56,483 nt of DNA, from IMG/VR virus record IMGVR_UViG_3300015259_000006, positions 1 through 56,483 of that record. One strand, given 5' to 3'. Of this stretch, positions 37,061-49,122 are shown in pieces. The stretch comes from a virus. Lineage: Duplodnaviria > Caudoviricetes. A model generated the notes under the pieces. That model saw only the letters and a program-made list of their open reading frames with translations. It was not told the DNA's origin and ran no database searches. Numbering within the stretch: the stretch's first letter is position 1; each line of letters begins with the position of its first letter. The position numbers and the translations under genes were made by a program.

Positions 37061-37618
37061 CTATCTGAAGGACTGCGCGATTATCTGGCGGAGGGCCAGC
37101 GAGTCGAATCCGGCGCGGATCTCGAGGTCTACCTGCTCCTGATCTTGCGCCGAACCGCCAGCGGATGGCTGCCAGCTCCAGCCGGCCGAGGCCGCGAGAT
37201 CGGCGGTAGGGACGTGGCCGGCCGCCCCAGCCGGGACCCGGACGGGGTTGGCGCCGTCGTGCCCGAGCAGATCCCCCTTGGCGGTGAGGATGGTGAAGCG
37301 GTGGGTGTGGCCCGAGAGCGAGACGCCGGGACCGCCACCCTGGGCGGAGACGGCCTCCACGACCCCCGGGGACCCCGTCACGTTCAGCGGGTGTCGGTGG
37401 TTGGCTGCCGTCCATCCGGCTGTCTCTTGGCCTTTGCTGGCTGCGACCCCGCCCTCGATCGCCAGGGGGAGGACGGTCGCCCCGAACCCGGCCGGCAGGC
37501 CGCCGACGATGCCCAGGACCTCGCGGTTGAAGGCCTCCTGGCGCTCCGCCACCTGCTGGAGGTTGGCGAGCTTGCTGAGCCTCGGAGGTTCGATCGGCCC
37601 CCGACGAGTCAGTGCCAT
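37061..37618 (-). CDS. Tail-associated protein
   Basis: ATG 37618 overlaps the giant gene's stop; LTAKGDLLGHDG..PVRVPAG fibre-like motif. Confidence 0.65.
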   Translation of the reverse strand: MALTRRGPIEPPRLSKLANLQQVAERQEAFNREVLGIVGGLPAGFGATVLPLAIEGGVAASKGQETAGWTAANHRHPLNVTGSPGVVEAVSAQGGGPGVSLSGHTHRFTILTAKGDLLGHDGANPVRVPAGAAGHVPTADLAASAGWSWQPSAGGSAQDQEQVDLEIRAGFDSLALRQIIAQSFR

Positions 37619-40600
37619 CGGGAGGGCCCCGCGAGCTCCCGCCGCGTCTGCTGTCGCGGCAGCTTCTTGGGTCCGCCGTGGCGGCGCCGCATCTCCCGGT
37701 TCGCCATCTCGGCCGCCACTCGATCGCGTTGCTGGATCAGCTTCCGAACCGCCTCGTCGTCCCGACCCTCGAGCGTGCGCATCGACCTGGTCAACGGCGT
37801 GAGGAGTCGGTTGCGGAACTTGCCGAAGGCCTCCTGCCACTCCCGCCGGAGCTCCTCGGGGACCTCGCTCGGAGGATAGCCGGCGATCGGTCCGCGCGGC
37901 CCGCGGTAGATCATGAGCCCGTACCGAGAGAGCAGCTTCTGCACCGGCTCAAGCAACCTCGTGGCCCCGGGGATGGGCGTCCCGCCGAGCGACGGGAACG
38001 AAGGGCTCTCGATGTCCGTGAACGGGATCCCGATCTTCTGGCGCGGCCGAAGGGGCTCCCCCGTGACGGGATTGACGGCCCCTGGAAGCGCATGAGAGAC
38101 GCCGGGGAGGTTCGCGCCTATCCCCTCGCGGATCGTCGGATCGAACAGCGTCTTGAGCGCGGAGAGCACCGCCTGCCCGGGGATCGCACGGTTGATCGTG
38201 TTCTCCAGCTCGCCGCGGAGGGCCCGCGGGTCGTTCTGCGGATTCTCGGCGGCCCGGAGGAAGGTCTTGATGAGCCCGCCCAGCAAGCCGCCCTCGCCGG
38301 CCAGGAGCCGGCCGCCCGGGATCGAGGCGTGGCGGAGCGAGGCGACCGCCTTCGAGATCGCCTCGTCCTTCTCCTGCTCGTTGCCCAGTGCGACGGCGTG
38401 CGCGCCGCGAATCACCGTGAGCAGCCACAGCGCCGTGGGGAGCGGGTCGCGGTTCGACAGGCGGATTCGGTTCCCGTCGTCGTCGACGTACTCCATGGAG
38501 TTGAAGTCCACCCGGTCGTACAGGTTGTTGATGAGGTAGAGCCCGCCGAGCCCCGTGGCCACCTTGCCGAGGTACTCGCCGACGTCCTCCGCCTTGAGCG
38601 TCCCCGCCTTCAGCCGCTGGTACATCTCGGGGTTCCACCCGAGCATCTCGCCCGCCCACCTGGTGAATTGGAAGGGCCAGCGGGCGAAGGTGTCCACGAG
38701 CAGCCGGGCGGTGGTCGAGTCCGCGACCTTCTCCTCGAGCTTCGACAGGTCGCGGTTGAAGCCGGCCTTCTTCCCGTTCGAGATCGCTCGATCGAGCGAC
38801 TCGGTCGGCGGGTCCTGCAGGAAGCGCTCGATGAACGCCTCGCGGTCGGCGCCGCTCACCTGCTCCCGGTGGGAGGCCTCGATCGCCTCACGGTAGAGCG
38901 TCCAGTGGGCCCCCAGCCGCTTGGCCGCGGTGTCCATGCCCTGCTTGAAGTAGAGTGGGAGCCCCACCGTGTAGTCGTAGGCCGTGCTCCCCAGCCCCTT
39001 CCGGTAGGTGAAGATCCCGGCGCCCGGCGCCCGGCCCATGCGCTCCCCGGCGATCGTCGTCTCCAGCCGCGCCTCCACGTCAGGGGCCATCGGCTCCACC
39101 GCGCTCTGCCGCCAGGAGGGTAGCTGCGTCTTCGTCCGGATCGTCCGGAAGAGCGCTTGCATGGACGGGAAGTAGGGCTGCCCCTTGGCCATGAGCACGA
39201 GGTCGCGCCCGATGCCCGCGCCGCCCTGCGCGGCCAGCTCCGAGGCGTTGCCCACAGCGTCGAGCGTCCACGAGGTCGTCGAGAACAGGTTGAGCCGGAA
39301 GTGATCGACGAGGTCCCGGCGGAACTGAGCCTTCTCCGGATCGCTGAGCGTGCTCCAGTTGCGAAGGCTCCGCAGGATGTTCGAGGCGATCGGGATCCGC
39401 TCCTTGACGTCCTTGATGTTCCCGGCGATGAGCCCGGCCTCGCGCAGCCGCTGGATCACCTCCTGCGGGATAGGCCGGTCGAAGCGCTTGACGGCGCGGC
39501 CCGCCGAGGTCCGGTAGACCTGCCAGTTCTTGACCGCCTGCTCCATGATCTGCCGAGAGAGCCGCATCTGGTAGGCGGAGTTGGCGTCCGCGCCGGTCGT
39601 GAAGCGCTGCTCCGCCGCCTGGAACTCCTTGACGGCCGAGACGATCTCGGCGCCCGCCTGCTCGATGTCCCGCTCGCTGAACCGGAAGCCCCGGGTCTCC
39701 TCCGGCGCCGGCTGCCCGGCCCGGCGGAACGCCGGCCGCTCGCCCTTGGCGATCGTGCCCCGCTCCTCGATCCGCTGGGCGCCCTCCTGCGCGATCTCGA
39801 ACTTGCGGTTCGTCGCCTCGAAGGTGTCGGCCACCCGCTTCGCACGGTTCGACGCGGTGACGGCGTCCTCCGCCAGGACCACGGAGGGCCGGCGGGTGTC
39901 CGGCGCCGCGGGAGCCCCTCGAGTGGGCACGGGGGGCGGACGGGGCCCGCCCGGGGGCGGGGAGATGAGCCCGAGGCCGGCGCGGGGCGGCCGCCCATCC
40001 CCGCCGGCCGCCGGGCGGGCCGGCAGGCCGGGCGCCGGCGTGCCGGCCTCCGCGCGCGCCTTCGGGTAGACCGCACGGAGATGGCGCCCCAGCCCGGGCA
40101 GGCCGACGTCCGCCATCATCGCCTTGGCCCAGCCGCCGAAGTCGCGCATCCCGCGCTGGATCAGGCTCGCGCCGTAGATGGTGGCGTCCCGCAGGGTCTC
40201 CGCCCCCATGCCGGCCGCGGCGCCCATCGAGAGCGGGTCGTCCGTCTCGCCCCGCTTCTTCAGTCGATCGAGGGCCGCCTGCCCAGCATCAGTCGCCGCC
40301 GCCGGCTTCTTCTCGGGCGCCATCGGCGGGTAGGCGTCCATCAGGTTCCGCAGGATGCGGACGCCCTCCGCCTGCTCGGTGGGCACGAAGAATCGGGTGC
40401 GGTACTCGATCTGCTCCTCGATGAGTCCCATCGACCGAAGATGCTGGAACCGACTGGACTTGACCCCAGACACTTCGACGCGACGTTCGCCGTGGACCTT
40501 GGTGCGCCTGAGAACGAGATTCTCGGAGAGGGCGACAGCCTCGCCCTGGTGGAAGACCGCGGTGAACACCTGCTCGGGCGTCTCGAACGTGCGCCCAACC

Positions 40601-43600
40601 CCGAGTGATTGCAGGACGCGCCCCACTTCGTTCTTGGGGATCTCGACGCCAACGATGCGTTGCCCGTTGTCCGCCTGGGCGCGGATGATCCGGAGCCCTT
40701 GCTCGTCGCCCTTGAGCCGCTGCCAGATCGGCAGGATGGAGCCGGCGATGATGTGGTGCTCCCGTTTCTCCGTCTTGGGAAGCTTGGCAACCGCCGCTTC
40801 CCACTCGTCGCGTATGGCCTTGGCGGACGCCCCGATCGGCTCGGGATGAGAGCCCAGCCTTTCGCGGACCTCCTCCTTGCGATCGGTGACGATCTCGTAC
40901 TTCTCGTTGAACTCGCTTTCAGGAATGCTCTCGAAGTCGCCGCGGTTGTTCCAGAGGCCCTGGACCCTTCGCACCGCGCCCGTCTGGGCGTCGGTCGTAT
41001 CCCGGGTTTTGCCAACCATGACGAGCCGCTTGCTCGTCTTCTGGCGGGCGATCCCGGTGCCGCCTCCAATCCCCTCTCTCCACGTCATCCGAGGCGTGGC
41101 CTCCTCGGCATCGAGGATCAGGTGTTTGGTTTCGGCGCCTGTCGTGGCGTCCGTGTGGATCAGGGTGGGATCTCCACGGACGTTGAGCGTGACCGCCTTC
41201 AGGTCCACCACGCCGTCATCGAAGGTCCCCTCTTCTTTGGCCTGCCGGATCGTGTCGTCGAACTTGCGGGTGAACTCTCCGAAGATCGCGTTCTGGCGCT
41301 GGAGGTCGAGCGAGAGGATGCGATTCAGGAATCGCGTTACGTCGCGGCGGGCGGCGTCTGGGACGCGGACGCTGCGGCCCTGCTCCTCCTTGGAGAGCCC
41401 CATGTCCACGATGGCCTGGCGCGTGTCTTCGACTCCGACAATCTCGCTTCCCCGCTCCATGTCCCAATAGAGCTTCTCCAGCGCGGCTTCGCCCTCGACG
41501 GTCTCGAAGTTGTACTTGGCGAGCTCTCCGCCGCCGCTCGCATCCCGCTGGCCTCGAGTAAGAGCCCCGAGGCTGGCCAGTCGGCGAGCGATAGTTGAGG
41601 AGAACCGCTTTTCCCCTCCGATGTCCGTCGAGACAAGGACGAAGACGGGGGTCTGGGCCTGATCGCTCCGATGGGCTCGTCCCATCGTCTGGAGCTCGGC
41701 GTCCGCCGACCAGTCCAGCTCGGCGGCAATCTGCCGGCGGCGTTGCTGGTTCTTCTCCTGATTCGAGGAGTGCAGCGAGATCCCCGTCGAGGCGGCTCGC
41801 GAGATGATGGCGATGCGCTTCTTGCCCCCCTGGAACTGACGCATCTCGTGGACGTTGACCTTGTTGCGCGACACCTCGTCGGATGCCCTGCTCTCGTAGG
41901 TCACCTTTCCGGTCTTCTTGTTTCGCACGAGGCGGCGCGCACGGCCGGTCAGCTCGGCGACGTTCTTCTCCCCGAAGTGGCTGATGAACTGGTCGAGCGG
42001 GTTGTCGGGCAGATTCAGGTCGGACAAGCCGTCCATAATCTGCTTCTTGAGAGCCAGGGCCTCCCTGCTCTGGACTGGCTTTCCGTCCCGCACCATCGCC
42101 ACCTTGACCGTCTTCGTCGGGTCTGTTGGGTCGCGAACTTCCTCGTACATCTGCGTGGGGAAAGCCTTATCGAGCATGGAGGCGAGAGTCTGGCGGGGCG
42201 TGAAGTCCAGCTCTTCTAGGCCAAGGCCCTCTCCGGTAGCCTTCGAGACAAGCTCGGAGGTTTTGCCTTCCCCGGTCCCCTTGAGCGTAACGATGACGCT
42301 CTCTCCCGCCGCAAGGGCCTCCTCCGTCTCTTTGATGATCGTCGGCATCTTGATCGCCGTCGTCACCTGTCGGAAGAAGCGCTGGTGAGCACCCCAGAAT
42401 GCCTGCATGGCGCTGGTGCGGGCCCGGGCATTGGCATTCGTGATGCCGATTGCATTTTCGATGTTCTGGAGGACGACCTGCCACGCCCGCGCCGAAGCGT
42501 CGTACATCTGCCGTTGGTCGGTCGTCGTCTCGTGGATCCGCTCCGCGTACTCGACGCCCTTGAAGGAGAGCGAACGGGCGGCATACATCCCGAGGGCCTT
42601 GAGGTCCCTGGAGACCATCTCCTTCGCCCCGACCCCGCCGCTCTCGATCTCGTTCAGGAACTCGTTGAAGCCGCCCGGGAAAGGATAGCGAGCGGCCAAA
42701 GCGCCGTGCGCCTCCACCTGGGCGGACATCTGCGGAGTCGGCCCGCCGAGCCCGCCGGCCCTGGGTGGCTCGGGGGCCCAGAGCCCCAGGCGGGTCATGT
42801 ACGCCATGTTGCGAACGTCGGTCGCCCCGGTGGCCGAGACGTAGAGTACGCGAGCGCCCGGGAGGTCGGTCTGAAGCTGGATGACCGCCTGTCCTGTCTG
42901 GCTGGGCTGGGCGCGGCCCACGCTCAAAGCGTTCTTGGCCTTGTGGGCTTCGTCGAAGACGATGACTCCGTCCTTGCCCAGCCACCGCTTGATCTGCTCG
43001 AGTCGGGTGTTCCCTCCGGCAGGTAGATGTCCGGGGTGTCCTGGCGGCGCGCCGGCGACCTTCTTCCCGGTGGAGATCAGGGAGTTGTAGGTGGTGAACA
43101 GGATGCCGGCGTCGTGCTTGATGTCTCCGGAGGCAGGGAAGGCGTTGATCGAGACGATGGGGATCTTGTCCTTCCCGGCCACGCCCTCCATGTCGCGCTT
43201 CGCGTCCTCGATGAGGTCGCGCGAAACGGAGACCCACAGGGACCGCTTGCGCCCCTGGTGCCAGTTGTCGAGGATGACGCCGGCGATCTCGCGGCCCTTC
43301 CCGACCCCCGTGCCGTCTCCAATGAAGTGACCGCCACGGGCCCCGTCGGGAAGCGTCTGCTCGTGCCTCTGTTTCGCGTAGAGCACCTGTTCGTACTGGA
43401 TGTCCGAGAGTCGCCCCTCCTTGAGCACAGCCTCGGGCAGCGAGGTCCGCACGCGAATCTCCGGCGGATCGACGGCCGCCATGGAGGCCGCCTCTACGAT
43501 GTCGGCCGGATGCTTCGCCAGTCCCTTGGTGTCGAGCTTCGCCGGGGCATACTGGACGAACGTCCCGCCGCTCTCTTCCTCTCGTGCGATCGGCCCCTCG

Positions 43601-46600
43601 CGCCGGGTTGGCGCGGCCGCAGTCGGTTCCTCGGTAAGACGACCGCCCTCATCGGGCGGCGGCTCTACACGGCCAACATCCGGAGCACGCCCAGGGCGAT
43701 CTCGTAGCTGTCCTTCGGCGGGTTGTTCAGGTCGAGCCCCGGGTTCGCCTGCTTGAATCGGCGCACGAGGGCCACCGGGTCTCCCTCCGGAGGGAGGTCG
43801 TCCGGGTCCAGGCCGGCCGCCAACGTCTCCTCCCGGAGCCGCGGCCCCGCCTCGAGGTGCTCCGTCCACGCCTGCTCCACCCGGCTCCACTGGCCGACTG
43901 GGCTCCGGAGCCAGCGGAGTTGCTCGGGGCTCGCCTGCTTTACGTTCGGCGCCGATGGGGAGGAGGGCATCGAGGGCATCCTCTAGTGAGGTAATACTCC
44001 CGCGGGCCACGTTTTGCAAGCGTTCTGCCATGGTCGCGCCGGGGGTCGGCCCCGTCTTGTCGATGACGAGGATCTGGTTTCCGAACGCCGTGCCGTACTT
44101 GCTGTACTCGTCTCCCGGTATCCCGATGTTGGCGCGGACGTTATAGCGAGGGAGGATGTCCGCCCACCAGTCGGCGAATGCTGCTCCGGTCGCGTGTCGC
44201 CCGGAGGGCTTCGGGGCAGCGATCACCTCGAACACCTGCCCGGACCTCGACAGCCCCGCCCGCGCCTCCGGGGTGTCGGGCGCCTCCCACTTCCCGTAGC
44301 CGTTCTGCTTGAAGCCCAGATCCTCGGCCAATGCGATCTGGTGGCGGTTGCCGGGCTCGGTGCGAAGGACACCGCGGACCGACTCCGGGAACTTCATGCC
44401 CTGGCCCACGATCGCCACGAGCCGGCCGCCGGGCTCCAGCCGCTGAAGCGCCTGGGTGACGTGCCGGGCCCCGTACTCCGTCTTGTTCGCCTGCACCCGC
44501 CCACCCGTCGCGGAGAACGGCGGGTTCATCACGATCACGGTGGGCCGCACGTCCTCGGGGAGCACGTCGTTGAGCACCTCGGCGTCCGAGGTCGTCGGCT
44601 TGAAGCCGAGGCGTTCGAGCAGCTTCACCCGCCGCGGAGCGATCTCGTTCACGCGGACGTCCTTCGCCCCTTCCGCCTGGATGAGCACGGCGATGCCGCC
44701 GTTGCCGGCGGAGGGCTCGAGCGCCACGTCCTCCGGACGGATGCCGGCCGCCTTGACGGCCACGAGCGCTTGGGTCGGTGGCGTCGAGAACTGCTGGAGC
44801 TCCTTCTGCTCGAGGGTCCTGTCGGTCTGCGTGGGCAGCCGCTTCAGGACATCGCGCAGCTCGGCGAGCGCCTTCTTCGGCTCCATCTTCGCGAGCCGCT
44901 TGCCGTTCTCCTGAATCCAGCGGTTGACGCCCGCCTCCATCGCATCGTAGGCGTCACGCGGCGTGTACTTGCCCTGGCCGCGCGTTCCTCCGAAGGCTTC
45001 CTGCGCGAGAGCGTCGAGCGAGCGGTTGTCCTTGATCGCTTCGCCCTTGCGAAGTCGTTCGGCGACGGCCTCTAGGAGCGTGGCCTCCGCATCCCTCGGG
45101 GCCTCCGGCCCACCGGATTCCTTCTTCTTCCGGTACTCGGCGGTGGCCAGCATGTCGCCGAGATCCTTGGAGTTGATGACGCCCCGCCGCACCAACTCCT
45201 CGCCGATCCGCCGCGTCTCCGCAACGTCCCACACCTTGTACGCAGCGTCGAGTTGATCCCCAAGCTCTGCGTCGGTCAGACGACCCTTGACGGTCTCGCC
45301 GGTGAGCGGCTCCTCGATTCGCCAGCCCTCGGGCAGCGTGCCGGGCTTGACGATGGACTCCTCCTCGTGGATCTCTGACTTCGGCGCGCCCTCTTCGGGA
45401 AGGCCGGTGACCGTCGCGCTACCGTCCCTCCTCATGCGCTCGGCTACCGCACGCGAGGTGTCGCTCGGCCGCGCCGACCAAAGGCTCCGCCGCGTGTCCC
45501 AGCGGAAGCCGGCCGTCTTGAAGCTGTCACGGATGGCCTTCGACGGCTTCTCAGCGAAGGCGATCGTGATCTCGGTGGAGGGCTTCGGTTCTGCAGGCCG
45601 CGGCTTCACCGGGAAGCCGGCCCCTTCGATCCTGGCCTTCGTCTCATCGCTGACCGCCGGCTTCTCCGGCTCGCGTTGCAGTGCGAAAAGGGCGTCGTCC
45701 TTGGCTCGCTCCCAGCGGGACCAGTCGTCGGGACTGCTCGTCTCCTCGAAGCGCTTGAGCCCCGCCTCAGCCGTCTCCACGATCTTCCGGTTGTCCTTCA
45801 GGTTGATCGCGCGGGTGAGCGCAGCCTTCAGCCGCTGGTATTCCTGCTGTGAAAGGCGCTCCTCTGGGGCGGCCGCAGGCTTCGCGGGACGCTCATGGCC
45901 CTTCGTGGCGAAGGAGGGGAGGACGTACTTGGCCCCGGGCTCGTTCTGGACCTGGGGGGTGACCGGCTTGCGGGCTTCCTCGCCCTGCTCGCGAGCCGCC
46001 TCGATGAGCGAGGCCGCGGCAGCCTTGTCCGGCTTGCGGGTGACTGCCTCCGCCGAGGGGAGTGGCGCTACTGCGGCAGGGGCTTCGGCCTCGGTGGGAA
46101 CCTCACCCGGACGAGCTTGCTCCCCGGGGGCAGAGACTTCACGAAGTCCGCGAGGCTGCTCACCACGGGCGGCTCGTTCGCCCGCGGCGACTCCGGCCTT
46201 CTTGGCAGCGTTGAGAGCGGCATCGGCTTCGGCAAGGTTCGCTCCTATTCCGTGATGGAGACCGATCCCCCGCATGGAGCGCGTCGATCCGTCCGGCAGT
46301 CGGAAGTCAACGACCGCCTCTCCAACGAGTTGCTTCAGTCTACCAGACCATTGGCCGATCTGTTCGGCGGTGTCCCCGCGGAGGAAGAACTCATCTCCCC
46401 CCACCCGGTACGCGCGGAGCCTCGGGTGTCCGCCCAGCTCCTTCTCGAACTCGGCACCCACAGCACGCAGGAGCGTGTCACCGGCCTCCTGGCCGAGGTT
46501 GTCGTTCACCCACTTCAGGCCCTCGACGTCGAGCTTGGCCTGCGGACCCTCTGCGCCCCCCGCCTCCTCGTAGGCCCGGCGGTTGCCCAGGCCGGTAAGG

Positions 46601-49122
46601 TCGTCCGTGAGCAGGGCCCGGCGCATCTCCTCGGGCTCCATGAGGTCAACGCGCTTCCGGAGGGCGAGGGCGGCACGGCGCTCGCGCGGGCCGGCCAGGG
46701 GTTGGGCGCGTCGCTCGCCGGTAGGTGCCGCGGGGGCTCCCTCTGTTCCTGCGGGAGCGCCGGGGACAGGCGCCGGAGGCGGCGCCCCCTCCCCGGGCCC
46801 GGCCGGGGCGCCGGGACGACCAGGGGCAGCGATGGGCGCTTCACCCGCTGGCGGTGCGCTTGGACCCCGCGGCTCAAGAGGTTGGACTGCCGGATGGATC
46901 GCCTCGGCCTGGCGCTTGTAGGCGAGGGGCTTCTTGGTGTCGCCCCCTCGAGCCCACGCCTTGAACTCCTCGACCGGCATCGAGGTGACCGCCCCGACGC
47001 GCTCCGAGGCCTTCCCGTCGGTGTAGGCCCGCCGGTAGGTGTCCAGGGCGGCGACCTCGTCTGGGAAGCCCAGCATGGCCTTGTGCTCATCGAAGCGCCC
47101 CGTCTTGGGGTCGATCTGGTCGATGACGAACACCCGCTCGGACTGCGGGGCGTCTCCCATGAAGACGTCGACCTGGTCCCCGTCCTTCCCCTCGGTGCGC
47201 CGGATGTAGCCGTAGTCGGCCGGGTAGTCGGGGACCCGCCAGGAGCGGTCCTTGGCCACCCGCTCGCCGCCCTTGGGGGTCTCGACGGAGATGTCCAGGC
47301 CCTGCCATGCCAGGTGGCCCTTCTTGTAGTTCCCGGCCTCCATCTGCGCGGGTGTCGGCGCCTCGGCGGGCGCCTCGGGGGCCGGCGCTGGCGGCGGCGG
47401 CGCGGCCGGGGGCGGTGGAAGTGCCTCGGCGGGTGGCTGCTCTCGTCCTGGGGGCGCCTCGGCCGCCTGCCGCCGCGTCTGACGGAGGGCGGCCTGCTCG
47501 ATGGGCCTGGCGACCTCCGGACGGGTCAGAACCCCGGCGGCGGCCTCAGCCTCCGGGGAGAGCTTCACCATCTCGGCGCCGAGGCCCGTCATCTCGGCCG
47601 GGGGCACCGGCGGCCCTGCGCGCGGTTCGGTGCGAGCCTCGCGGAGCGCCGCACTGATCGCCGTGGCGGTCGGGCGCCGCTGCAGGAACTCCCGTGTCAG
47701 CCGGGCCTGCTCCGCAGCCACACGGGCCTCCTGGATGGCCTCCGGCCGGTGCCGTTGCTCGATCTGCCATCTCCGCCGCGCGGCCCGGTCCATCTCCCGG
47801 GCGACCTCGGGGCGGGTGACGGCGCCGGCCTCGGCCTCGGCCGCGGGCGACAGGCGCACCATGTCGGACCCGGTCCCCGTCAGCTTGGGCGGGCCCGGCA
47901 GCGGGACGACCCGCGGGTCCCTCGGACCCATCAGGGCGGACCGGACGGCGGGCGAGATCGACCGGCGCTGGAGGAACTCCCGCGCGAGGCGCAGCTGCTC
48001 GGCGTTCGCCTGAGCTTCCCGGTTGGGCGTCAGGAACTCCCGCTCGCGCGCCTCGAAGGCCGCCTGCTCGACGGCCGCCTCCTCGATCGCCCGCGCCTTG
48101 GCCTCGGCGGCGGCCACCGCGATCCGCGGGTCCTTCGCGAAGCCGTGCTTTAGGCCCAGGCCTCCGAACGCGAGCGACGAGACGGACCCCAGGCCGGTGC
48201 GCAGCGTCTCGGGGTCCGACCAGCCGCGCTCGCGCGCCATCTCTCCGGTCTCCACCGCCCCCTCGACGCCCCCTATCACCATCTCGGGGGCGAAGGCGAG
48301 GCCGGCGGCGCGTGCCGCGATCGGAGACGCCTTGCCGAGCGTGCTGAAGGCCTTCCCGTACATCGGCAGGCCGACCGCAAGATCGGCAACGAATTCGCCG
48401 ACCGCCTCGGCCTGTCGCACGGCGCGCGGTGCCGCCTCGTGGTAGATCGGTTCCGTGCCGGGGATCCCGCCTGGAGCGCTGGGGTCCGCTGGGAGGAGGT
48501 GCTCCGCGACTCGCGGCATGCCGAGCGCGCGCGCCGCCGCCGCCGCCGCTACACCCATCCCCAGAGGCAGACCGGGTCGCGCGGGCCGGCCCTCCGCGAG
48601 CGCTCGACCCATCTCCGCGGCGGGGCGCTTGATGTTCTCCTCGCGCAGCAGTTCTTCGATGCCTGGCGACTCGAAGCCGAGGAGCGTCTCCGGCGCGAGG
48701 CGAAGCCTCGAGCGCTCTGCCGGGACTCCAGCCGCGTACTCCTGAACCGCCGTGCCGACAGCGGCCGGCACGCGGAACACGGCATCCGCAACCTCGCCGG
48801 CCCTCGCCGCCGCTCCCTTGATGGTCGAGAAGGACTCTTCGCCTTCCGGGGTGAGCCTGACCGCCGACGGCTTCCCGGTCGCCAGGGCCATCCCTTCCTG
48901 GCCCAGCATCGCGAAACCGCGGAGCGGGTTGATGGTCCTCTCGACGTCCTTGACTTTGCCCCAGACGCCCTTCGCGGCGCGCGCGATCAGGGGCTCCGAC
49001 TTCTGCGGCGCCGGCGTGAAGAGGTCCCCGTAGCGGCTCGACTGGGTCGGCCCGGTTGACGGACGTCTGGCGACTGTCGAAGCCGTCGAGTCCGGTAGCA
49101 GGAAGTCATACCGACCGGGCAT
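37609..49122 (-). CDS. Giant polyvalent DarB-like internal virion protein (InPase, GGDEF, N6-adenine MTase, strawberry-notch SF2 helicase, helical C-terminus)
   Basis: AQMEAGNYKKGH...DYGY...DGDQVDV...FDEHK (about 47360-46920); TDDLTGLGNRR...ND..G...GD...RVGGDEF (about 46640-46195); QFSTPP, LEPSAGNG, MNPPF (about 44900-44050); GDGTGVGKGRE, FDEAH, SATGA, QTMGRAHRSDQ (about 43560-41250). Follows the ejection-type genes. Confidence 0.92.
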   Translation of the reverse strand: MPGRYDFLLPDSTASTVARRPSTGPTQSSRYGDLFTPAPQKSEPLIARAAKGVWGKVKDVERTINPLRGFAMLGQEGMALATGKPSAVRLTPEGEESFSTIKGAAARAGEVADAVFRVPAAVGTAVQEYAAGVPAERSRLRLAPETLLGFESPGIEELLREENIKRPAAEMGRALAEGRPARPGLPLGMGVAAAAAARALGMPRVAEHLLPADPSAPGGIPGTEPIYHEAAPRAVRQAEAVGEFVADLAVGLPMYGKAFSTLGKASPIAARAAGLAFAPEMVIGGVEGAVETGEMARERGWSDPETLRTGLGSVSSLAFGGLGLKHGFAKDPRIAVAAAEAKARAIEEAAVEQAAFEAREREFLTPNREAQANAEQLRLAREFLQRRSISPAVRSALMGPRDPRVVPLPGPPKLTGTGSDMVRLSPAAEAEAGAVTRPEVAREMDRAARRRWQIEQRHRPEAIQEARVAAEQARLTREFLQRRPTATAISAALREARTEPRAGPPVPPAEMTGLGAEMVKLSPEAEAAAGVLTRPEVARPIEQAALRQTRRQAAEAPPGREQPPAEALPPPPAAPPPPAPAPEAPAEAPTPAQMEAGNYKKGHLAWQGLDISVETPKGGERVAKDRSWRVPDYPADYGYIRRTEGKDGDQVDVFMGDAPQSERVFVIDQIDPKTGRFDEHKAMLGFPDEVAALDTYRRAYTDGKASERVGAVTSMPVEEFKAWARGGDTKKPLAYKRQAEAIHPAVQPLEPRGPSAPPAGEAPIAAPGRPGAPAGPGEGAPPPAPVPGAPAGTEGAPAAPTGERRAQPLAGPRERRAALALRKRVDLMEPEEMRRALLTDDLTGLGNRRAYEEAGGAEGPQAKLDVEGLKWVNDNLGQEAGDTLLRAVGAEFEKELGGHPRLRAYRVGGDEFFLRGDTAEQIGQWSGRLKQLVGEAVVDFRLPDGSTRSMRGIGLHHGIGANLAEADAALNAAKKAGVAAGERAARGEQPRGLREVSAPGEQARPGEVPTEAEAPAAVAPLPSAEAVTRKPDKAAAASLIEAAREQGEEARKPVTPQVQNEPGAKYVLPSFATKGHERPAKPAAAPEERLSQQEYQRLKAALTRAINLKDNRKIVETAEAGLKRFEETSSPDDWSRWERAKDDALFALQREPEKPAVSDETKARIEGAGFPVKPRPAEPKPSTEITIAFAEKPSKAIRDSFKTAGFRWDTRRSLWSARPSDTSRAVAERMRRDGSATVTGLPEEGAPKSEIHEEESIVKPGTLPEGWRIEEPLTGETVKGRLTDAELGDQLDAAYKVWDVAETRRIGEELVRRGVINSKDLGDMLATAEYRKKKESGGPEAPRDAEATLLEAVAERLRKGEAIKDNRSLDALAQEAFGGTRGQGKYTPRDAYDAMEAGVNRWIQENGKRLAKMEPKKALAELRDVLKRLPTQTDRTLEQKELQQFSTPPTQALVAVKAAGIRPEDVALEPSAGNGGIAVLIQAEGAKDVRVNEIAPRRVKLLERLGFKPTTSDAEVLNDVLPEDVRPTVIVMNPPFSATGGRVQANKTEYGARHVTQALQRLEPGGRLVAIVGQGMKFPESVRGVLRTEPGNRHQIALAEDLGFKQNGYGKWEAPDTPEARAGLSRSGQVFEVIAAPKPSGRHATGAAFADWWADILPRYNVRANIGIPGDEYSKYGTAFGNQILVIDKTGPTPGATMAERLQNVARGSITSLEDALDALLPIGAERKAGEPRATPLAPEPSRPVEPGGAGVDGAPRGGAAAPGGDVGGRPGPGRPPSGGRPGGPRAPIQAGEPGARPEQPAEGQLRDRPGRAPDVGRVEPPPDEGGRLTEEPTAAAPTRREGPIAREEESGGTFVQYAPAKLDTKGLAKHPADIVEAASMAAVDPPEIRVRTSLPEAVLKEGRLSDIQYEQVLYAKQRHEQTLPDGARGGHFIGDGTGVGKGREIAGVILDNWHQGRKRSLWVSVSRDLIEDAKRDMEGVAGKDKIPIVSINAFPASGDIKHDAGILFTTYNSLISTGKKVAGAPPGHPGHLPAGGNTRLEQIKRWLGKDGVIVFDEAHKAKNALSVGRAQPSQTGQAVIQLQTDLPGARVLYVSATGATDVRNMAYMTRLGLWAPEPPRAGGLGGPTPQMSAQVEAHGALAARYPFPGGFNEFLNEIESGGVGAKEMVSRDLKALGMYAARSLSFKGVEYAERIHETTTDQRQMYDASARAWQVVLQNIENAIGITNANARARTSAMQAFWGAHQRFFRQVTTAIKMPTIIKETEEALAAGESVIVTLKGTGEGKTSELVSKATGEGLGLEELDFTPRQTLASMLDKAFPTQMYEEVRDPTDPTKTVKVAMVRDGKPVQSREALALKKQIMDGLSDLNLPDNPLDQFISHFGEKNVAELTGRARRLVRNKKTGKVTYESRASDEVSRNKVNVHEMRQFQGGKKRIAIISRAASTGISLHSSNQEKNQQRRRQIAAELDWSADAELQTMGRAHRSDQAQTPVFVLVSTDIGGEKRFSSTIARRLASLGALTRGQRDASGGGELAKYNFETVEGEAALEKLYWDMERGSEIVGVEDTRQAIVDMGLSKEEQGRSVRVPDAARRDVTRFLNRILSLDLQRQNAIFGEFTRKFDDTIRQAKEEGTFDDGVVDLKAVTLNVRGDPTLIHTDATTGAETKHLILDAEEATPRMTWREGIGGGTGIARQKTSKRLVMVGKTRDTTDAQTGAVRRVQGLWNNRGDFESIPESEFNEKYEIVTDRKEEVRERLGSHPEPIGASAKAIRDEWEAAVAKLPKTEKREHHIIAGSILPIWQRLKGDEQGLRIIRAQADNGQRIVGVEIPKNEVGRVLQSLGVGRTFETPEQVFTAVFHQGEAVALSENLVLRRTKVHGERRVEVSGVKSSRFQHLRSMGLIEEQIEYRTRFFVPTEQAEGVRILRNLMDAYPPMAPEKKPAAATDAGQAALDRLKKRGETDDPLSMGAAAGMGAETLRDATIYGASLIQRGMRDFGGWAKAMMADVGLPGLGRHLRAVYPKARAEAGTPAPGLPARPAAGGDGRPPRAGLGLISPPPGGPRPPPVPTRGAPAAPDTRRPSVVLAEDAVTASNRAKRVADTFEATNRKFEIAQEGAQRIEERGTIAKGERPAFRRAGQPAPEETRGFRFSERDIEQAGAEIVSAVKEFQAAEQRFTTGADANSAYQMRLSRQIMEQAVKNWQVYRTSAGRAVKRFDRPIPQEVIQRLREAGLIAGNIKDVKERIPIASNILRSLRNWSTLSDPEKAQFRRDLVDHFRLNLFSTTSWTLDAVGNASELAAQGGAGIGRDLVLMAKGQPYFPSMQALFRTIRTKTQLPSWRQSAVEPMAPDVEARLETTIAGERMGRAPGAGIFTYRKGLGSTAYDYTVGLPLYFKQGMDTAAKRLGAHWTLYREAIEASHREQVSGADREAFIERFLQDPPTESLDRAISNGKKAGFNRDLSKLEEKVADSTTARLLVDTFARWPFQFTRWAGEMLGWNPEMYQRLKAGTLKAEDVGEYLGKVATGLGGLYLINNLYDRVDFNSMEYVDDDGNRIRLSNRDPLPTALWLLTVIRGAHAVALGNEQEKDEAISKAVASLRHASIPGGRLLAGEGGLLGGLIKTFLRAAENPQNDPRALRGELENTINRAIPGQAVLSALKTLFDPTIREGIGANLPGVSHALPGAVNPVTGEPLRPRQKIGIPFTDIESPSFPSLGGTPIPGATRLLEPVQKLLSRYGLMIYRGPRGPIAGYPPSEVPEELRREWQEAFGKFRNRLLTPLTRSMRTLEGRDDEAVRKLIQQRDRVAAEMANREMRRRHGGPKKLPRQQTRRELAGPSRWH
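43665..43979 (-). CDS. Nested +1-frame gene (101-104 aa) right after the MTase domain
   Basis: Protein-like sequence; about 7 of 104 codons end in A/T (hand count), while about half of the overlapping main-frame codons do; AGAGG upstream of ATG 43970. Confidence 0.75.
   Translation of the reverse strand: MPSMPSSPSAPNVKQASPEQLRWLRSPVGQWSRVEQAWTEHLEAGPRLREETLAAGLDPDDLPPEGDPVALVRRFKQANPGLDLNNPPKDSYEIALGVLRMLAV
46068..46235 (-). CDS. Nested +1-frame gene (55 aa) overlapping the end of the GGDEF domain
   Basis: AGGAG-6 nt-TTG; MPKPMPLSTLPRRPESPRANEPPVVSSLADFVKSLPPGSKLVRVRFPPRPKPLPQ*; about 25 of 56 main-frame codons end in A/T here. Confidence 0.6.
   Translation of the reverse strand: MPKPMPLSTLPRRPESPRANEPPVVSSLADFVKSLPPGSKLVRVRFPPRPKPLPQ

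Follow-up and report, generated by a model that had tools for sequence, protein, structure and literature searches.

Genes and features at the locus

We analysed the whole IMG/VR virus record IMGVR_UViG_3300015259_000006, a stretch of 56,483 bp (98% complete, GC content about 68%) that is referred to here as the window. Within it, a short open reading frame (ORF) at 46068..46235 on the minus strand lies in the +1 frame of a much larger gene, and we found that this ORF is probably a gene in its own right. The host gene (37609..49122, minus strand) is given in the ORF list as 11,514 nucleotides (nt) encoding a polyvalent protein of 3837 amino acids (aa). According to Pfam, the protein contains an InPase domain (residues 592-724), a GGDEF domain (839-977), a methyltransferase domain (MTS, 1471-1586) and a Strawberry-notch-type helicase (AAA_34 and Helicase_C_4, 1870-2640).

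The GGDEF domain is encoded at 46192..46608 on the minus strand and carries the signature GGDEF. It matches PF00990 with 30.4 bits (cut-off 23.8). Its AlphaFold2 (AF2) model has a predicted local distance difference test score (pLDDT) of 93.6, and the top Foldseek matches in the PDB are GGDEF cyclases throughout, with template modelling (TM) scores of about 0.6-0.75. In an alignment of the domain with its relatives (alignment A1), D30, K35, N38, D39 and G74-F77 are invariant and D47 is conserved in at least 90% of the sequences; the conserved residues are those that we take, from PleD, to bind the metal and the base. By sequence and fold the domain is a GGDEF diguanylate cyclase, and its activity is predicted. 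In an alignment of 75 GGDEF modules, mostly from phage polyvalent proteins, we also observed that 59 read SGDEF rather than GGDEF, the present domain being among 13 with GGDEF.

With its start at offset 2887 of the host gene, the nested ORF is in frame +1, and it runs for 55 aa from a TTG at 46235 to a TAG stop at 46070..46068. A Shine-Dalgarno (SD)-like AGGAG (46242..46246, minus strand) stands 6 nt ahead of the TTG. It is formed by the rare main-frame codons ATA-GGA, and a +1-frame stop (TAG, 46247..46245) overlaps it. The preliminary description of this DNA had reported this ORF together with its AGGAG and TTG, and we found all of them in place. The translation, which reads SLADFVKSLPPGSKLVRVRFPP..., also includes VVSSLADFVKSLPPGSKLVRVRF exactly as first written. 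The conserved core of the peptide (46089..46160, minus strand) comprises residues 26-49, SSLADFVKSLPPGSKLVRVRFPPR, arranged as a short helix and then a strand. An alternative start, ATG at 46223, would give a product of 51 aa.

An ORF of this length is expected by chance. The host gene holds 11 ORFs of at least 55 aa in its +1 frame, the nested ORF being the shortest of them, and 200 synonymous shuffles gave 13.1 +/- 2.2. Therefore, the ORF as such is no evidence of a gene; it is the codon anomaly and the conservation in homologues that exceed chance. An internal promoter was considered as well, because an extended -10 element had been proposed. The string TGGTAGACT is indeed present at 46345..46337 (minus strand). 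As for the promoter role, a sigma-70 scan of 45800..46800 returned 0 promoter-like sites, and we rejected an internal sigma-70 promoter at this position.

Codon usage of the main frame over the nested ORF

We examined the third codon positions of the host gene. Among the 58 main-frame codons that touch the nested ORF, 26 end in A or T, compared with 13.9% over the whole gene. After correction for amino-acid content with the gene's own codon usage, 25 of 57 codons are A/T-ending against 8.7 expected (z 6.0), which confirms the excess noted in the preliminary description. The wider block of low GC content at third positions (GC3) covers codons 920-1020 (46063..46365, minus strand), with 42 A/T-ending codons against 15.1 expected (z 7.6). 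Such a block indicates that the DNA is under a second constraint.

The base composition of the +1 frame was compared along the host gene. Only two of the long +1 stretches have a coding-like composition, in which GC is low at the second position and high at the third. These are the nested ORF (0.64/0.57/0.90 at the three positions) and the stretch 43982..43665 (0.72/0.50/0.93). The remaining long stretches have a second-position GC of 0.77-0.98 and would encode R/S/P-rich junk.

Other causes of the dip were considered and set aside. A region search identified 28 other polyvalent proteins that share the GGDEF module with the host protein, and their main-frame alignment extends through the first 30-40 codons of the nested ORF, with the family motif AKxxRExxGxR-AxRGExPPG. 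Since this alignment runs through, the main frame is real at the nested ORF. Specifically, codons 963-1003 align with all 28 homologues, which excludes a compensated frameshift, a misread frame or a foreign patch as the cause of the low GC3. A compensated frameshift or a foreign patch is further contradicted by the same dip in 13 other loci. A general GC ceiling was rejected too, because other G/A/P-rich stretches of the host gene hold a GC3 of 0.78-0.84.

In the 13 other high-GC loci, the excess of A/T third bases was found at the homologous place, with a pooled z of 8.4 over codons -30..0 and 12.3 over codons 0..+30. The excess is confined to the nested ORF, all other bins having z of at most 2.9.

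Conservation of the open frame, the start and the Shine-Dalgarno core

Alignment A1 of the domain led to 80 viral contigs with a polyvalent-type GGDEF module. Of these, 74 could be aligned through the domain end, 6 being dropped because their match ended before domain residue 150. Removal of 4 near-duplicates left 70 non-redundant loci, and 9 more with a main-frame stop in the test window were set aside, which gave 61 testable loci with the query excluded. The test window comprised codons -22..+23 around the conserved RG, and starts were sought at -30..-19. As the null, synonymous codons were resampled 1000 times per locus from that locus's own usage with the main-frame protein fixed.

We found the +1 frame open in 43 of the 61 loci against 22.9 expected. 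A start codon is present at -30..-19 in 43 loci against 19.2 expected, and an ATG in 38 against 13.1. Both features together, an open frame and a start, occur in 41 loci where 12.2 are expected (P 7e-21). For the 33 loci whose GC content does not exceed 0.55, 23 such cases compare with 5.8 expected. When one locus was taken per 50%-identity cluster (39 clusters), the median was 23 against 6.4, with a worst P of 2.6e-11. An SD core (AGGA, GGAG or GAGG) 4-10 nt before a usable start was found in 25 of the 61 loci against 2.7 expected (P 1e-24). For the query itself, the null probability of an SD core plus a start is 0.039. Thus the ribosome-binding site, the start and the peptide, on whose conservation the preliminary description had staked its proposal, are all three conserved far beyond the synonymous-resampling null.

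Shared descent does not explain these counts, because synonymous sites outside the ORF are near saturation: identity at four-fold sites is 0.304, with 0.269 expected (419 pairs).

Two arrangements of the start recur. In the first, an ATG at -29 arises from a main-frame TAT or CAT followed by G, and an AGGA- or GGAG-like core lies 6-12 nt upstream. In the second, TAGGAG at -27 contains a +1 stop, and the start (ATG, GTG or TTG) comes next, at -22 or -23. The query shares its AGGAG, 6-nt spacer and TTG with one other locus (L016). AGGAG also precedes an ATG by 9 nt in three loci (L020, L027 and L030) and a GTG in a fourth (L021). Across loci with GC contents of 42-69%, the +1 frame stays open for 50-65 codons between similar limits and ends in a recognisable peptide.

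Six loci (L025, L026, L046, L051, L055 and L071) have an open +1 frame and a start at the same place with a peptide that departs from the motif. Some of these peptides, such as those of L051 and L046, are protein-like, and the nested genes of these loci may have diverged or been replaced.

Selection on the +1 peptide

The peptides of 29 loci have in common the motif SLxxWLxxLPxGxK(L/I)xx(V/I)xLPPKK, directly followed by the stop. Its central part, [WF][LV]xxLPxGxK, is nearly identical to the pattern F..SLP.G.K that had been proposed from the query sequence. Examples of such tails, each ending at the stop codon, are SLQAWLESLPPGGKLTVTLPPKK (L013), NLLEFLQNLPPGSKITEVKLPPKQK (L011) and SHLDQLFDLPKGSTLTVKFPKK (L020, which has a GC content of 42%). 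Of the 30 motif-bearing loci, 28 have SGDEF in the main frame. The family of nested products ranges from 45 to 70 aa (median 55) and is basic, with a median isoelectric point (pI) of 10.2 and a median net charge of +7.

The tail of the query was scored against a leave-one-out profile of 33 other loci and reached 34.0 bits, compared with -0.9 +/- 2.8 (maximum 7.7) for 200 synonymous shuffles. In 28 of the 34 loci no shuffle reached the real score, and six were weaker. Furthermore, the three frames of the same nucleotides were compared. The +1 frame has a pairwise identity of 31% and a BLOSUM62 score of 1.11 per position, the main frame 22.7% and 0.66, and the +2 frame 23% and 0.33.

The variability of single bases differs along the ORF. 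In the stretch that encodes the conserved GGDEF helix, third positions of the main frame vary most (0.61 vs 0.40 and 0.42). The tail overlaps a linker that is poorly conserved in the main frame. There, second positions of the +1 frame, equivalent to third positions of the main frame, hardly vary at key columns (0.00-0.25), whereas third positions of the +1 frame do (0.5-0.7). The pattern in the tail cannot arise from selection on the main frame. Taken together, these comparisons show, at the level of aligned sequences, that the frame, the start and the SD core are kept and that the C-terminal 25 residues are under selection in the +1 frame.

Spread of the motif

We scanned 82 viral and phage loci in six frames with the family profile. 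It matched 31 of them, namely the 29 training loci and two near-duplicates, and every match sits at the GGDEF end in the +1 frame. In the six frames of the window, the nested ORF is the sole match (65.3 bits, E 3e-19); profile A2, which gives this score, holds the nested ORF as its first row, and the independent score is the leave-one-out value of 34.0 bits.

As a negative control, 80 GGDEF loci from bacterial genomes, mostly cellular GGDEF genes, were scanned, and the motif was found in 0 of them. The closest GGDEF relative from a bacterial genome lies on an Acidobacteriota metagenome-assembled genome contig (L085, 1501..2150; 53% identity). Two stand-alone GGDEF proteins, YuA gp44 and LK3 ORF70, have no motif either.

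Among 1.84 billion representative proteins, the family profile found 82 at E <=1e-3 and 9 at E <=1e-10. Most of the 82 have lengths of 45-70 aa and probably represent the nested ORF itself, annotated on short contigs. Several others bear the motif in frame as part of unrelated proteins, usually at the C-terminal end. In P0089 and P0106 it follows Sel1 repeats, as confirmed by Pfam; P0054 terminates in it; and P0051 carries it ahead of a further C-terminal stretch. P0041 and P0063 each have two tandem copies. A metagenome contig (L084) encodes a relative of P0041 without the tail, and therefore the tail is a modular addition. The presence of the motif in frame on unrelated proteins is independent evidence, again from sequences, that the motif is made as protein.

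One protein of 144 aa, P0095, begins in the GGDEF main frame and, past the SYG strand, continues as the +1 peptide. Either an assembly indel or a natural frameshifted copy would explain it.

The peptide and its nested relatives have no match in Pfam. In PHROGs, the query peptide is unmatched, and five families gave single-member matches only (E >=0.01). Searches of the ESM Atlas, a longer protein search with A2 and a scan of viral contigs with the GGDEF region as a single sequence were unproductive.

Predicted docking on the GGDEF domain

The peptide was folded alone with AF2 and was also co-folded with the GGDEF domain. In the model of the peptide alone, the helix covers residues 28-33 and the pLDDT is 84-86 over residues 31-50. 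The co-folds with the domain scored 0.74, 0.74 and 0.73, compared with 0.46 for the best of 3 controls. The mark that was applied, which the pair reaches, is attained by 58 of 80 solved complexes and by 2 of 110 mismatched pairs, counts that hold only roughly here because our own alignments were used in the co-fold. The runs have at least 70% of contacts in common, and the pLDDT of the partner is 62-63.

The predicted interface is formed by peptide residues 26-49, which correspond to the conserved core. In the model, peptide residues 38-45 pair with domain residues 101-108, where the fold of the domain has an edge strand (102-106). Specifically, the peptide strand GSKLVRVRF is placed beside the edge strand AVVDFRLPD, and the peptide helix rests on domain helices 34-41 and 43-61, including the helix after the metal-binding strand. 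The proposal that the nested product is the cognate partner of the GGDEF domain thus draws its support from the model, in which the pair scored above the best control.

Interpretation and alternative explanations

We consider 46235..46068 to be a real, separately translated overprinted gene, with a probability of about 0.8. Ribosomes would initiate at the internal SD core and start on the long mRNA, by which the small protein would be made separately. The family would then comprise small basic +1-frame proteins encoded over the last GGDEF helix and the following linker in genes for phage polyvalent proteins. The partner on which the conserved helix-strand core would dock is most probably the GGDEF domain, whose coding sequence lies immediately upstream. 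For docking of the core on this domain, the co-fold model leads us to roughly even odds. That such docking keeps the cyclase inactive in the phage-producing cell is speculative and, in our estimate, unlikely; a role as activator, chaperone or tether fits the data equally well.

Several observations weigh against this reading. Of the 61 testable loci, 20 lack an open +1 frame with a start, and the null retains the codon usage of each locus without its codon-pair or context effects. The profile recognises the motif in only 29 of the 70 non-redundant viral loci, all of them training rows of that profile. The 34 loci of the profile and frame-identity tests were picked by eye, and A2 was fitted to the +1 peptides; the tests over all 61 loci are free of both biases. 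In the query, the start is a TTG and ambiguous with the ATG at 46223. The first 25 residues of the peptide are of low complexity and largely dictated by the main frame. The peptide alone folds poorly, with a pLDDT of 74, a predicted TM score of 0.28 and one 6-residue helix, and the co-fold score is the model's own confidence and is silent on inhibition. Furthermore, a tblastn search with two family members against 50,697 GenBank phage records gave no match, and no phage in culture was identified that carries the module. Finally, the bacterial relative L085 has no nested motif in its +1 frame, though its main frame keeps ...GERAARGxRPRGL, and it is possibly a case of loss of the nested peptide.

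The explanation that competes best accepts a real nested gene and regards its tail as a portable docking tag for a partner other than GGDEF, the position at the GGDEF end being a historical accident. The partner could be a protein of the capsid or portal or a different hub protein, or it could be nucleic acid, as suggested by the median pI of 10.2. The motif at the C-terminus of unrelated proteins (the Sel1-repeat proteins and others without a Pfam match), its tandem copies in P0041 and P0063, the strongly basic character of the family (median net charge +7) and a lone peptide that is largely unstructured, as short docking motifs are, would all suit a tag of this kind. However, the co-fold with GGDEF passed its controls (0.74 vs 0.46), and a six-frame search of all 29 motif-bearing viral loci placed the gene solely at the GGDEF end. 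The two ideas are also not exclusive, since tagged proteins could dock on GGDEF domains too. We regard a tag for a different partner as possible, though less likely than its absence.

A second explanation needs no separate gene. Programmed +1 (or -2) frameshifting or transcriptional slippage would produce a truncated InPase-GGDEF isoform that ends in the tail. Such an isoform would account for conservation that is limited to the C-terminal 25 residues after a low-complexity stretch, for free-standing relatives in which the motif is a C-terminal tail behind a linker, and for P0095, where the GGDEF main frame is joined to the +1 peptide, possibly by an assembly indel. The enriched starts, ATG especially, and the well-spaced SD cores would be needless for frameshifting, and +1 stops at -23 to -33 in most loci leave a short window for the shift. 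We found a main-frame stop in 0 of 30 loci (-27..+40) and a homopolymer of at least 6 in 3 of 30 (-27..+4), so there is no conserved prfB-type site or slippery run. Frameshifting is therefore quite improbable.

It is still less probable that high GC content and a hydrophilic, stop-poor main frame gave rise to the ORF by chance, with its conservation a by-product of the main frame or of shared ancestry. The count of such ORFs in the host gene (11 against 13.1 expected), a null probability of 0.50 that the +1 frame of the query is open, and an N-terminal half of the peptide that is largely fixed by the conserved main-frame helix are what one would expect of a chance ORF. But chance is rejected by every test with a fixed main-frame protein, including loci of 42-55% GC. 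Over the tail the main frame is less conserved than the +1 frame, synonymous sites outside the ORF are near saturation, and the motif recurs in frame in unrelated proteins. Least probable of all is a constraint on the nucleic acid (an RNA fold or a DNA site within the linker), which the codon anomaly alone would suit as it would any second constraint, since the peptide motif is kept across 42-69% GC while +1 third bases vary, the positions of start, SD core and stop are kept, and the motif is found in frame in other proteins.

Other candidate nested regions and significance

The second +1 stretch with coding-like composition is a further candidate nested gene. It lies at 43665..43970 on the minus strand, in the +1 frame of the host gene, and would encode 101 aa from an ATG at 43970 (stop to stop, 43982..43665), with GAGG 9 nt upstream of the ATG. 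It is located in the linker between the methyltransferase and helicase domains, where the main frame is of low complexity and G/P/R-rich, and it coincides with the strongest third-base anomaly of the host gene (z 8.4). The sequence is protein-like. It has no Pfam match, and two proteins of 101 and 105 aa (P0115 and P0116, respectively) resemble it with about 60% identity and many invariant W, G and P residues. The preliminary description had suggested a general design in which an enzyme domain carries an overprinted cognate gene; in support of this we can offer this one further candidate, with its composition and its two homologues.

We also observed a third island of A/T third bases at about 46720..46890 (minus strand), between InPase and GGDEF, with 23 A/T-ending codons against 9.1 expected over codons 745-800 (z 5.0). 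In this P/A/G-rich linker, no coding-like alternative frame stood out in the composition scan of long +1 stretches.

A broader scheme would join these observations. In this scheme, polyvalent genes encode micro-proteins in the +1 frame over the GGDEF end; each would dock by strand addition on the cyclase domain where it is encoded and would silence it in the producing cell until the giant protein has been packaged and injected. The motif would serve again as a C-terminal tag with which other phage proteins, for example those with Sel1 repeats, travel on the polyvalent protein, and the candidate at 43970..43665 suggests that the design recurs along the polypeptide. We consider the scheme as a whole doubtful.

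Gene finders skip ORFs that are nested in a long ORF, and a conserved family of small phage proteins has thus been left unannotated. If its product docks on GGDEF, this would give a first handle on the control of phage-delivered nucleotide cyclases. Modules that are shuffled among polyvalent proteins can bring their own partner gene in a second frame, and the 25-residue motif, being portable, may represent a new docking tag. In addition, dual coding within a high-GC gene can be traced by a local dip in GC3, which flagged both candidates in this ORF of 11.5 kb.

Comparison with known systems

In the Rz/Rz1 spanins of phage lambda, one gene is embedded in the +1 frame of the other, and the two products bind each other. 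The nested gene described here is similar in that a small gene with its own start would lie wholly within a larger phage gene in the +1 frame, and in that binding to its partner is predicted by the model. In contrast to Rz/Rz1, the nested family has no lipobox or lipoprotein signal (any Cys occurs in only 1 of 30 peptides), and it lacks a hydrophobic N-terminus, a membrane segment and a lysis context. Its host gene is a polyvalent one of 11.5 kb, in which the overlap spans the end of an enzyme domain and a linker. Without lipoprotein features, the family is not a spanin.

Polyvalent proteins with GGDEF and InPase modules were surveyed by Iyer et al. 2017 (PMC5512222), where such proteins were proposed to be packaged in the virion and delivered into the host. 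The host protein resembles those described there, as it combines InPase, GGDEF, methyltransferase and SNF2-like ATPase domains in one polypeptide. In the main text of that paper the words "overlapping" and "frameshift" have 0 occurrences each, and the passages concerned describe no second-frame gene. The literature on polyvalent proteins and phage GGDEF genes, judged mostly from listings, yielded no report of a nested gene.

The SiaC/SiaD pair, as represented by PDB entry 7e6g, resembles the proposed arrangement in that a GGDEF cyclase is bound and regulated by a small protein distinct from it. SiaC differs from the nested peptide, since it is described there as an activator and is separately encoded and folded, rather than an overprinted peptide of 55 residues. 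We found no sequence relation between the peptide and SiaC, in keeping with the absence of Pfam and PHROGs matches.

The nested gene would also resemble effector-immunity and toxin-antitoxin systems, in which a cognate small binder (here a predicted one) is encoded and inherited with the enzyme as a unit. Immunity genes, however, normally follow the effector gene and do not lie inside it in another frame. Embedded +1 partner genes are known in kind from Rz/Rz1, and the nested family in polyvalent GGDEF modules appears to be new.

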